From an uncultured Gammaproteobacteria bacterium (GTDB lineage: Bacteria > Patescibacteriota > Microgenomatia > PFEM01 > CAYPPS01), in assembly GCA_964655765.1 (NCBI GenBank), contig CAZZNI010000013.1, positions 616-24,615 on the forward strand: a stretch of 24,000 nt of DNA, read 5' to 3'. Position 1 is the first letter of the stretch; each line of letters begins with the position of its first letter. This document shows positions 14,416 to 17,131 of this stretch, piece after piece. Under the pieces are notes generated by a model. That model searched no databases and was not told the origin of the DNA. It saw nothing but the letters and a program-made list of their open reading frames with translations. The position numbers and the translations under genes were made by a program.

Positions 14416-14796
14416 TTATGTTCCAGGGATTTCAAAGACAGTAACCTTGATGCCGGTAAAGCTTTCAATTAACAGCAAAATAAACCAAGAGATGATTATT
14501 AAGGCCAGGCCAAAAATAGCGTAAGTGAGAGTTTTTTGCGCCCCAGCGGCTTTTTCCGGGTCGCCGCCGGCAGTAAGATACTTAATGCCGCCAACCAGTA
14601 ACATAATAAAAACAGCCAGACCGGCAAAACGCAAAGCATAATTAAAAACAATTTGAAAAACACAGCCAATATCCTGAAGAGTTGCTGCATCGTTTTTGGC
14701 TGTGTCACTCCAACAATCATTACCTGCTGCACAGGCAACAGGTAAATTAGTGACAAATAGAACCGGTAACAGTAAAACCGCAATTATTTTTTTCAT
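14416..14796 (-). CDS. T4SS pilin-like (VirB2/TrbC-type hairpin) paralogue P7, with cleavable-looking signal peptide
   Basis: I place the start at ATG 14796 (AGGA lies 9 nt upstream). The listed 14904 start overlaps the previous gene. The signal peptide is MKKIIAVLLLPVLFVTNLPVACAA. The core is FAGLAVFIMLLVGGIKYLTAGGDPEKAAGAQKTLTYAIFGLALIIISWF, that is TM1, charged loop, TM2. Confidence 0.8.
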   Translation of the reverse strand: MKKIIAVLLLPVLFVTNLPVACAAGNDCWSDTAKNDAATLQDIGCVFQIVFNYALRFAGLAVFIMLLVGGIKYLTAGGDPEKAAGAQKTLTYAIFGLALIIISWFILLLIESFTGIKVTVFEIPGT

Positions 14797-14822
14797 TTTC
14801 TTAAATCCTAACAACCAGGCCG

Positions 14823-14858
14823 GCCACATTAACGGCAAGCCTAGGTTGTTAATGTGGC
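14823..14858 (-). promoter_or_regulatory. perfect 11-bp stem / 14-nt loop hairpin 5 nt downstream of the P6 stop
   Basis: GCCACATTAAC (14823-14833) pairs with GTTAATGTGGC (14848-14858). In the minus-strand RNA the hairpin is not followed by a U-tract, so it looks like a stabiliser, attenuator or processing element rather than a canonical intrinsic terminator. Confidence 0.4.
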
Positions 14859-14863
14859 TACAT

Positions 14864-15253
14864 TTATTGTGTAGGCGGTTGAACCTTTGGAATTTGAAGA
14901 CCACTAATGATTTTTATACCAAGGAAGGTTTCAACGATTCCAATTAATGCCCAGGTTGAAAAAACAATTGCCAGTCCAATAATTGCCGCTGTTAAAGTAC
15001 TTTGAGCTGCAGCGGTTTGTTCTTTATCGCCACCAGAGGTGATCCACTTGATACCACCGTAAATTAAAAAGAAAAAGGCGACTAAACCGGCTATAGCCAA
15101 CACTAGAGTTACTAGTCCTGAGATAATACTGGGGACAGTTAAGCTTACGGCGCCGGCAAACTCCGTTGATGGTGTCAGCGTGATTGCTTGGCCAGTGATT
15201 GCTGACTCTTGGGCATATATCGGACTTGAAATTAAGTTTAAAATTTTATCCAT
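14864..15253 (-). CDS. T4SS pilin-like paralogue P6, candidate major pilin
   Basis: 129 aa. The core is LVAFFFLIYGGIKWITSGGDKEQTAAAQSTLTAAIIGLAIVFSTW. It has a strong SD (AGGAGGGAGGTGA) in a 5' UTR behind its own consensus promoter. Confidence 0.85.
   Translation of the reverse strand: MDKILNLISSPIYAQESAITGQAITLTPSTEFAGAVSLTVPSIISGLVTLVLAIAGLVAFFFLIYGGIKWITSGGDKEQTAAAQSTLTAAIIGLAIVFSTWALIGIVETFLGIKIISGLQIPKVQPPTQ
15001..15080. repeat. 80-nt near-identical segment shared with 15498-15577 (copy 1, inside P6)
   Basis: By hand alignment 78 of 80 nt are identical. The two differences (15047 c/t, 15056 a/g) are synonymous. The flanking coding sequence of the two paralogues is clearly more diverged. 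Confidence 0.9.
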
Positions 15254-15292
15254 TTTTTTCTTTCACCTCCCTCCTGGTTATTATTAGTCATG

Positions 15293-15322
15293 ATTATAAG
15301 TAAAGTTGTAAAACAAAGTCAA
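15293..15322 (-). promoter_or_regulatory. near-consensus sigma70 promoter internal to the pilin array, driving P6
   Basis: The minus strand reads TTGACT (15322-15317), 18 nt spacer, then TATAAT (15298-15293). The -35 starts 2 nt after the P5 stop, and a roughly 40-nt leader carrying GGAGGGAGG follows. Confidence 0.5.
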
Positions 15323-15324
15323 TT

Positions 15325-15729
15325 TTATTTCAAAGTTCCGTATTGGTCGTAATATTGACCAGCTGGACTTCTCGGACCGCTTGGTAAGCTGGAATTTATA
15401 TCGTTACTGTTTAGACCGAAAAATCCTGTTACCAAATTTAGAATCGCCCAGGCGGAAAAAGCCAGTGCTAGGCCAATGATAGCAGCGGTCAAGGTTTTTT
15501 GAGCTGCAGCGGTTTGTTCTTTATCGCCACCAGAGGTGATCCATTTGATACCGCCGTAAATTAAAAAGAAAAAGGCGGTAAGAGCGGCAACAACCAAAAC
15601 TAAGTCAATAATAGCGGTGATTAAGGTTTGTAGATTATAGTCGTCGCTTGCCTGTCTTATTGGAGAGCCGATTGTGTTTAGGGCTTCACCGATGTTGCTG
15701 CTGGTGGCTTGGAGTAGAAATAAATTCAT
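15325..15729 (-). CDS. T4SS pilin-like paralogue P5
   Basis: The first ATG is at 15729 and forms an ATGA overlap with the P4 stop. The listed 15744 start is a TTG. The core is LTAFFFLIYGGIKWITSGGDKEQTAAAQKTLTAAIIGLALAFSAW. There is a polar C-terminal tail (SSLPSGPRSPAGQYYDQYGTLK). Confidence 0.8.
   Translation of the reverse strand: MNLFLLQATSSNIGEALNTIGSPIRQASDDYNLQTLITAIIDLVLVVAALTAFFFLIYGGIKWITSGGDKEQTAAAQKTLTAAIIGLALAFSAWAILNLVTGFFGLNSNDINSSLPSGPRSPAGQYYDQYGTLK
15498..15577. repeat. 80-nt near-identical segment shared with 15001-15080 (copy 2, inside P5)
   Basis: See copy 1. The segment encodes FFFLIYGGIKWITSGGDKEQTAAAQ in both genes. Confidence 0.9.
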
Positions 15730-16079
15730 TGCAATGTTGGCCAAGGAATATCTAATGTTCGCAAGAATTCTATTCCCAAAAAGCCGCCAACAAAATCAAG
15801 GATAATCGTGGCAACGGCGATCAGGGTAAAGCCAATGATACCAGTCATTAATCTCTTTTGGGCTGCCTTAACTTTCTCTGCGTCGCCGCCGGCAGTAATC
15901 CATTCCAGCGCTGCCCAAAGAATCATAAACAGCAAGGCGATACCGCCGATGATTAAAATTATTGTCATTAATTTGGCCAAAAAAAGTGCCAGGATATTAG
16001 CTCCTTGGCTGGTTGCGCCTGGTTCACAAGTTTCCGGGACTAGTGGATTACAAATAGCAGCGTAAGCCTTTTTTACCAT
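15726..16079 (-). CDS. T4SS pilin-like paralogue P4
   Basis: 117 aa. The ATG at 16079 overlaps the P3 stop by 7 nt. The core is IALLFMILWAALEWITAGGDAEKVKAAQKRLMTGIIGFTLIAVATI. There is an N-terminal Cys pair (AAICNPLVPETCEPG). Confidence 0.8.
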   Translation of the reverse strand: MVKKAYAAICNPLVPETCEPGATSQGANILALFLAKLMTIILIIGGIALLFMILWAALEWITAGGDAEKVKAAQKRLMTGIIGFTLIAVATIILDFVGGFLGIEFLRTLDIPWPTLQ

Positions 16080-16459
16080 AAGTTGCCGATTAAACCTTCT
16101 AAGTCCAAAAAGTCGATTCCTAAAATTAAACTAATTAGAGAGATTAAAGTAAAAGCGCCGATGACTATTACTAAGCCAACCAGGCTTTGGGTCATTTTTT
16201 TAGTACTGTTTTTGACAGCTTCTTCGTTGCCGGCAGAAACCACCATTCCAACTGCGGCAATCATGAAATTAAAAATAAACCATAAACCAGCAACAATAGT
16301 CATTATCCCAATAACGGTAGAAATGATTCGGCTTAAATCACCTACCGAACCGAGTCCGTCAAAAGCACCGGCGTCGGAAAAGGGTCCTAGGCCGGAATCT
16401 GGTGGCCCACCGATAAGACCCAAATCTTTGTCAGCTAAATAAACTTTATTTTTAATCAT
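16073..16459 (-). CDS. T4SS pilin-like paralogue P3 (divergent loop)
   Basis: I place the start at ATG 16459 (AGGAAG lies 6 nt upstream, and the ATG is 1 nt after the P2 TAA). The listed 16555 start runs through P2. The core is IVAGLWFIFNFMIAAVGMVVSAGNEEAVKNSTKKMTQSLVGLVIVIGAF. The N-terminal region is Gly/Asp-rich. Confidence 0.7.
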   Translation of the reverse strand: MIKNKVYLADKDLGLIGGPPDSGLGPFSDAGAFDGLGSVGDLSRIISTVIGIMTIVAGLWFIFNFMIAAVGMVVSAGNEEAVKNSTKKMTQSLVGLVIVIGAFTLISLISLILGIDFLDLEGLIGNLW

Positions 16460-16460
16460 T

Positions 16461-16796
16461 TTAGCTTCCTGGCCCATAAACTGTTGGCTCAAAAATAGCC
16501 CTGGCATCACCAAAAATAATGTAACCGAAGATGGCTCCCAGAACAAATGAACCAACTATGAAAAGTAATCCCATCAGCGACTGCCAGATTTTCGCCCAAG
16601 CCGCCTCCATTTTTTTCGGATCATCACTGGCACTTAAAAAACCAAAACCGGCTAAAACCAAGTTAAAAAAGGCCCATAAACCGCCAACGGCAATCATTAA
16701 GCGGAGAATGTTATTAAGAAAAACCAACAAACCTTCCGGTCCGGTACCGTAGTTTTGAATTACTTCTGGCGCTGCGATATTGCCGATTGGATCCAT
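16461..16796 (-). CDS. T4SS pilin-like paralogue P2
   Basis: 111 aa. There is a TAATG 1-nt overlap with P1. The core is GGLWAFFNLVLAGFGFLSASDDPKKMEAAWAKIWQSLMGLLFIVGSF. Confidence 0.75.
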   Translation of the reverse strand: MDPIGNIAAPEVIQNYGTGPEGLLVFLNNILRLMIAVGGLWAFFNLVLAGFGFLSASDDPKKMEAAWAKIWQSLMGLLFIVGSFVLGAIFGYIIFGDARAIFEPTVYGPGS

Positions 16797-17131
16797 TATT
16801 CTAGTATGCTAATGCCTGTTAAAACTTTAATAATTTGAATTGCCCACCAACTGGCTAGCACAATTGCCAGGCCAATGGCTGCGGTGGTGATAACTTTTTT
16901 ACCTTGAGCAGTTTTTTCTTCATCACCGCTACCGGCACTGGTAATCATTAGTATACCACCGGCGATTAAAATGACAAAAAGAATCACACCAATAAAGACA
17001 TAAACATTAGGTAGAATCGAAGAGATAAACGCACCGATGCTTTTGTATTCATCCTGGTTGCCGATTCCACTGGTGGAGTCACCAGGGTTAAGGAGTAGTT
17101 CTTGGCCAATGTCAAAAGCAAGCTGCTTCAT
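16796..17131 (-). CDS. T4SS pilin-like paralogue P1, first gene of the pilin operon
   Basis: 111 aa. The core is VILFVILIAGGILMITSAGSGDEEKTAQGKKVITTAAIGLAIVLASWW. There is no SD, and the promoter sits immediately upstream. Confidence 0.8.
   Translation of the reverse strand: MKQLAFDIGQELLLNPGDSTSGIGNQDEYKSIGAFISSILPNVYVFIGVILFVILIAGGILMITSAGSGDEEKTAQGKKVITTAAIGLAIVLASWWAIQIIKVLTGISILE

Follow-up and report, generated by a model that had tools for sequence, protein, structure and literature searches.

The stretch of DNA analyzed here (the window; 24,000 nt, C13:616-24615) belongs to a genome of 705 kb and 96% completeness that stems from a sludge metagenome assembly, and its locus is present in six sludge DNA runs, a search for RNA runs having found none. 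An HMM search found seven genes of the family PF18895 (T4SS_pilin) in tandem on the minus strand (P1 to P7), while the total in the genome amounts to nine, every one of them inside the window. Located 3' of this pilin array are genes for a 1008-aa protein, a 583-aa polytopic protein, a PrgI/VirB3-like protein, a VirB4-like ATPase, and an M23 peptidase. No tRNAs and no matches to Rfam families were found in the window. The genes with assigned families are listed below (SD, Shine-Dalgarno sequence).

17131-16796, minus strand: P1, PF18895 T4SS_pilin
16796-16461, minus strand: P2, PF18895 T4SS_pilin
16555-16073, minus strand: P3, PF18895 T4SS_pilin
16079-15726, minus strand: P4, PF18895 T4SS_pilin
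15744-15325, minus strand: P5, PF18895, upstream pilin and closest paralogue of P6, without SD, stop at 15327-15325
15253-14864, minus strand: P6, PF18895, 129 aa, core FFFLIYGGIKWITSGGDKEQTAAAQ, ATG at 15253, TAA stop at 14866-14864
14796-14416, minus strand: P7, PF18895, downstream pilin paralogue with a signal peptide, without SD
7442-6483, minus strand: PrgI family (PrgI/VirB3-like), downstream of the pilin array
5478-3592, minus strand: VirB4-like (TraG P-loop, CagE_TrbE_VirB), downstream of the pilin array
3755-2040, minus strand: M23 peptidase, downstream of the pilin array

P6 is associated with T4SS core genes, having VirB4-like and PrgI/VirB3-like neighbours, and this synteny is kept in relatives. 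The array lies in a type IV secretion locus, chromosomal and of the monoderm type, in a bacterium of the Microgenomatia (Patescibacteria), a placement derived from the names attached to homologues (Microgenomates, Roizman-, Shapiro-, Woese-, and Gottesmanbacteria). "Uncultured Gammaproteobacteria bacterium" is the title of many GTDB representative records (binchicken co-assemblies) in which this Microgenomatia pilin locus occurs, probably as a placeholder or mislabel.

Start signals of P6

The start signals upstream of P1 and P6 are listed below.

17168-17139, minus strand: promoter of the P1-P5 operon, TTGACA-18-TATCAT, 11/12, 7 nt to the P1 ATG (17131)
15322-15293, minus strand: sigma-70-type promoter of P6, -35 TTGACT at 15322-15317, 18-nt spacer, -10 TATAAT at 15298-15293
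15275-15263, minus strand: SD of P6, AGGAGGGAGGTGA, 9 nt 5' of the ATG at 15253, -21.1 kcal/mol

The initial annotation had located a TTGACT-18-TATAAT promoter on the minus strand directly after the P5 stop, and it is indeed found there, its -35 beginning 2 nt past the stop codon. It scores 11/12 with a spacer inside the 16-19 nt criterion, and the predicted transcription start falls at ~15286-15285, which would yield an mRNA with a 5' leader of ~32 nt. The element had further been called the best promoter of the window. The high score stands, but the first rank is shared with the P1 promoter: apart from this pair no site of the 24-kb window reaches 11/12, and first-order Markov simulations give 0.34 +/- 0.55 such matches. 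The P5-to-P6-promoter interval contains no terminator, so that P6 should also be transcribed from the P1 promoter.

The same arrangement emerges from the relatives. When the upstream regions of five orthologues (62-72% protein identity) were compared, the only invariant blocks were TTGAC, TAnnnT at 18-nt spacing, and GG.GGTGAA; the regions have otherwise diverged and are unalignable 5' of the -35. This alignment revealed no operator-like repeat and no conserved leader structure between the P6 -10 and the SD. Upstream of P6-type genes, 56% of 54 unique regions have a promoter of at least 10/12 (2.6% of shuffles) and 39% one of at least 11/12 (0.3% of shuffles), and in the metagenome loci the -10 ends ~18-55 nt 5' of the ATG.

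The SD was likewise found at its annotated position. Its hybridization energy of -21.1 kcal/mol compares to -1 to -6 kcal/mol for the other genes of the cluster, with the 16S rRNA tail taken as canonical because the 16S rRNA gene was not found in the assembly, and GGAGGTGA has a single occurrence in the window. The host genome barely uses SDs. We surveyed ORFs of at least 120 aa with internal ATGs as control, and moderate SDs turned out to be background (-8 to -10 kcal/mol; best-case frequencies of 30% at starts versus 29% at internal ATGs, and 14.5% versus 13.4%). Strong ones (-15 kcal/mol or lower) precede 21 of 605 ORFs genome-wide (3.5%, versus 0.8% in the control), P6 being within the top 9. 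The strong-SD genes include those for a type IV pilus pilin (N_methyl), Hsp20, NDK, thioredoxin, an SDR reductase, ribosomal proteins L10 and L24, KhpA, MscL, and several signal-peptide proteins; in several cases the SD is combined with a TTGACA promoter and with a strong hairpin 3' of the gene. A strong SD is then the marker of a small gene set, plausibly encoding abundant proteins, and in such an SD-poor, leaderless-prone genome it can be used to flag highly expressed genes. The type IV pilus pilin with the N_methyl motif (G000:C10:12341-12817) carries an SD of the same kind (AAAGGAGGTGACAATATG); a second prepilin-like ORF lies directly 3' of it, the DNA encoding a GFTLVELLV-type N-terminus.

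The first genes of operons in this genome seem to be transcribed into leaderless mRNAs by default. Genome-wide, the spacing between -10 and start codon is most often 6-8 nt, which indicates that leaderless mRNAs are widespread, and with 7 nt between its -10 and its ATG the P1 mRNA is probably one of them. P1 to P5 would be served by a single leaderless promoter and translated by coupling. P6, in a genome with almost no SDs, would initiate from a leader SD that pairs with the 16S rRNA tail over its full length.

Orthologues of P6 were found at 50-72% identity, on contigs of the same layout (a divergent polyprenyl synthase gene, seven pilin genes, and the gene of a large protein), and they keep the SD as GG(A/G)GGTGA. 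Across nine syntenic Microgenomatia loci, the SD of the P6 orthologue ranges from -16 to -22 kcal/mol and those of the other cluster genes from ~0 to -10 kcal/mol, the sole exception being a P5 copy in locus L021. That P5-position gene (L021:3449-3874) has the full GGAGGTGA SD (-21.5 kcal/mol), is 60% identical to P6, and looks like a second P6-like copy with predicted high expression. In the syntenic loci P6 is flanked by gaps of 19-127 nt, and the remaining genes overlap or abut. The contrast holds in a larger sample of 80 metagenome loci, where an SD of -15 kcal/mol or lower precedes 60 of 74 P6-type genes versus 2 of 287 other same-strand ORFs; among the 14 P6-type genes that lack one, several cases are due to miscalled starts. 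Altogether, the features of the P6 cassette recur in ~60 further lineages.

Their distribution has a limit. Among GTDB species representatives, 11-12 of 14 close orthologues have a strong SD and 12 of 65 distant ones do, which argues that the cassette belongs to an order-level clade and not to the whole class; a strong SD universal in the class is ruled out by the latter number. Distant Microgenomatia (Gottesmanbacteria-like and others; L142, L157, L176, L154, L156, L171) have a P6-type gene without SD and a TATAAT- or TACGAT-like hexamer 8-10 nt 5' of its ATG, which suggests that these genes possess a leaderless promoter of their own instead of an SD.

The proposal that P6 forms a self-contained expression unit gains from these comparisons, as promoter and SD are the sole invariant blocks upstream of it, recur in ~60 lineages, and are surrounded by tightly packed neighbours without SD. 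We consider it quite probable, judging from the arrangement of signals, that P6 is an autonomous expression unit with a strong SD. Autonomy might serve a purpose other than high output. A promoter of its own and a terminator behind the gene confer independence as well as strength, and in TM7x the expression of T4SS genes shifts with the host-association phase (PMC10768705); P6 could then be switched separately, e.g., upon host contact, and need neither dominate over its paralogues nor be the subunit that polymerises. We regard this as rather unlikely, given that nothing operator-like accompanies the conserved hexamers and SD, that a near-consensus promoter combined with a fully complementary SD is typical of constitutive strong expression, and that the same class of signals is found on abundant housekeeping proteins of this genome.

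The spacer between P6 and P7

The short region that separates P6 from P7 contains two overlapping hairpins as well as what seem to be the remains of a promoter.

14858-14823, minus strand: hairpin A, perfect 11-bp stem (GCCACATTAAC at 14858-14848, GTTAATGTGGC at 14833-14823), 14-nt loop
14852-14808, minus strand: hairpin B, in the P6-P7 spacer, 18 pairs, two bulges, loop UUAAUG, then the U-rich run UUGUUAGGAUUU
14838-14833, minus strand: -35-like TTGCCG of P7, 22 nt from TAGGAT
14810-14805, minus strand: -10 remnant TAGGAT of P7, 8 nt 5' of the P7 ATG

Hairpin A is the structure to which the initial annotation had drawn attention, and it is present as described, beginning 5 nt past the P6 TAA (14866-14864) and lacking a U-tract behind it. 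Its designation as the hairpin of the cassette does not hold, since the stem is specific to this sequence and a conserved hairpin overlaps it. The recommended folding of the spacer with RNAfold did return a stable hairpin, namely hairpin B (-24.4 kcal/mol, pair probability 0.999), and not the flagged stem (-15.1 kcal/mol, 0.0007); the two are mutually exclusive and B accounts for 99.9% of the ensemble. We consequently rejected hairpin A as a functional stem, its left arm being coding or unrelated sequence in relatives.

Hairpin B is a stable, GC-containing stem-loop directly 3' of P6, as required of the stem of an intrinsic terminator. It corresponds to a perfect 16-bp stem in the same-genus genome (z = -4.9), and double compensatory changes occur at 3 of 17 pairs among four close sequences. 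The consensus fold of 13 distant spacers comprises 6 pairs only, because the stems shift register among them, and distant spacers were instead scanned sequence by sequence. Of 62 unique regions 3' of P6-type genes, 18 contain a terminator-like hairpin that has a U-rich tail (29%, versus 2.3% in shuffles). The P6-P7 spacer shares with intrinsic terminators the stable GC-containing stem right after the stop, and relatives also have the U-rich runs (e.g., TTTTGGTGTTG). A U-tract, defined as at least 5 T in 8 nt, is present in the closest relatives (L034, L035) and in 16 further lineages; the copy in the window differs by its bulged stem and by an interrupted U-run (UUGUUAGGAUUU) that falls below this threshold. 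The hairpin with its U-rich 3' side is predicted to end or stabilize most transcripts before P7.

Promoter, SD, and hairpin could in principle be functionless chance matches in an AT-rich spacer, and indeed promoter-like matches of at least 9/12 are not in excess in the window (36 versus 33 in shuffles). Matches of at least 11/12, though, are rare, and all three features are conserved and paralogue-specific over dozens of lineages, so that the comparative data effectively refute this reading, to which we give almost no weight.

In distant relatives the spacer reads ...ACACCTACyCTTGACGGTAGGTGTTTTGGTGTTGTAAAGTgaaaa-ATG. A -35 (CTTGACGG) is situated inside the loop of the stem, the U-rich run doubles as a 17-18-nt promoter spacer, and the -10 then lies 5-9 nt 5' of the P7 start. 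The pattern TTGACn-17/18-TAAA(G/T)T with 5-9 nt to the P7 start was found in 44 of 62 spacers of relatives (0.6% of shuffles), among them those of L037, L042, L047, L070, L098, and L103, and indicates a putative leaderless promoter of P7. As this -35 is in the hairpin loop of most relatives, terminator and promoter overlap. In most lineages, as far as such motifs can tell, P6 is delimited by a predicted terminator together with a promoter from which P7 would be transcribed leaderless. The P7 promoter looks degenerate in the clade of the window (TTGCCG, 22-nt spacing, TAGGAT), where expression of P7 and of the genes 3' of it may rely on read-through transcripts or on the weak promoter remnant.

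We tentatively raise a further idea, which we hold to be improbable in its entirety: the P6-P7 spacer might act as a compact terminator-promoter switch. Heavy transcription of P6 that ends in the spacer would occlude the promoter of P7 and of the adhesin and VirB6 genes behind it, since in relatives the -35 is in the loop and the U-tract is the promoter spacer. In the lineage of the window, with its decayed P7 promoter, the lineage-specific hairpin A would compete with the terminator in a translation-coupled attenuation involving hairpins A and B: the left arm of A begins 5 nt past the stop, and a ribosome terminating on P6 would favour the terminator and attenuate read-through into P7. Should this be true, the supply of subunits would be inversely coupled to the synthesis of the machine.

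P6 within the pilin array

P6 matches the PF18895 T4SS_pilin HMM with 42.7 bits (cut-off 26.6) over profile positions 5-71 of 71. Its AF2 model (27 orthologues) displays the two-helix hairpin of PF18895 pilins, with helices at residues 40-72 and 77-111 (pLDDT 83-92), a SGGD loop, and an N-terminus of low confidence. Near their N-terminus the orthologues have in common a short segment with (V/I)YAQ at its end, which is compatible with cleavage by signal peptidase. P6 thereby resembles the VirB2/TrbC/TraA-type T4SS pilins (PF04956, PF18895), likewise small proteins in which a leader is combined with two hydrophobic helices and a short polar loop between them, and it resides, as VirB2-type pilins do, in a locus (here chromosomal) with VirB4-, VirB3/PrgI-, and VirB6-like genes. 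A Foldseek search with the P6 model retrieved generic helical hairpins only, with no specific match, and a PDB sequence search gave no match; the protein is therefore attributed to PF18895 by HMM score and gene context and not by likeness to solved pilin structures. P6 might alternatively be abundant without being a pilus subunit, as a two-helix membrane protein of the monoderm-type T4SS envelope complex or of the cell surface that forms no filament. Besides the outcome of these searches, this reading has in its favour that the Patescibacteria T4SS originates from Gram-positive MPF-FATA systems, which are without a VirB2 pilin (PMC12102498). Our literature search found no description of a PF18895-built filament for Patescibacteria. 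The family match above cut-off, the helix-loop-helix architecture of VirB2/TraA in the model, and the adjoining VirB4-like and PrgI/VirB3-like genes argue against a non-pilus protein, which we deem doubtful.

The explanation we favour, with a probability of about 0.65, is that P6 is a separately expressed gene in a seven-pilin array, predicted to be made in large excess and to be the major polymerising subunit, with the other paralogues as minor ones. The combined signals would lead to a high protein level, with P6 far outnumbering its six paralogues in molar terms, which is the pattern expected of one major polymerising subunit and minor partners. The narrower statement that P6 is the major pilin seems to us somewhat better than an even bet on the basis of these signals.

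The initial annotation had left open whether the other paralogues are minor or alternative subunits. Each of the seven paralogues has its orthologue at the same position in other loci (window 14416-17131 versus L015 and L019-L023), with identities across loci of 30-71% between genes at matching positions and mostly 12-35% between genes at different ones. This speaks for paralogues that each have a fixed role of their own and against interchangeable variants. Since the order of the paralogues is constant across loci, one major and six minor subunits fit better than alternative or antigenic variants, and we disfavour the latter option. A point against the favoured explanation is that P2, and not P6, is the most conserved paralogue (60-71% across loci, P6 being next with 50-69%); P3, P4, and P5 diverge fastest.

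In other pilus operons the gene of the major subunit, for example papA or fimA (chaperone-usher pili) or pilA (type IV pili), is expressed more strongly than the genes next to it. P6 shares the logic of these systems, in which strong start signals of the gene's own and a stem-loop that terminates or stabilizes the mRNA bring about subunit excess, and the type IV pilus pilin of the same genome has, like P6, a GGAGGTGA SD. The protein families and assembly machines of the papA, fimA, and pilA systems are unrelated to P6, and the contrast in expression signals is sharper here because the genes around P6 have no SD and rely on leaderless initiation or coupling. With respect to classical T4SS, which have one VirB2 and one minor pilin (VirB5), the locus differs in having one pilin plus six paralogues.

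Patescibacteria represent a large share of bacterial diversity. In the sole experimental analysis so far, a T4SS-like locus of Patescibacteria was reported to be essential (PMC12102498). Pilin arrays are already known from this group: "VirB2 arrays" of 2-11 pilin genes were described, especially in Microgenomatia, and were read as possible antigenic or host-range variation, promoters being unmentioned (PMC12102498). PF18895 pilins were also among the five top-expressed signal-peptide genes of unknown function in metatranscriptomes of three genomes of another class, the Paceibacteria (PMC10936435). The array presented here differs from the variation proposal in that its paralogues are orthologous by position and strong expression signals are found on one of them only. 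A paralogue-specific promoter, SD, and terminator provide a concrete, testable assignment of roles that departs from that proposal: the "GGIKWITSGGDKE"-type gene would encode the bulk subunit, the six position-conserved paralogues would be its low-copy partners, and P6 would be the protein to seek in filaments, to tag, or to model.

A near-identical block in P5 and P6

P5 and P6 share a block of 80 nt (15577-15498 in P5, ~15080-15001 in P6) that is identical at 78 of 80 positions, the remainder of both genes being ~50-60% identical. The block covers the FFFLIYGGIKWITSGGDKEQTAAAQ core and is, to judge by this identity profile, a gene-conversion footprint. Assemblies split or fuse at it. The contigs of the same-genus genome G001 end inside the block, and because of this break G001 does not cover the P6 promoter region and is silent on it. 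The chimeric protein P0004, from a 1-kb contig, joins the N-terminus of P5 to the C-terminus of P6 and represents either a misassembly or a deletion variant without the P6 promoter.
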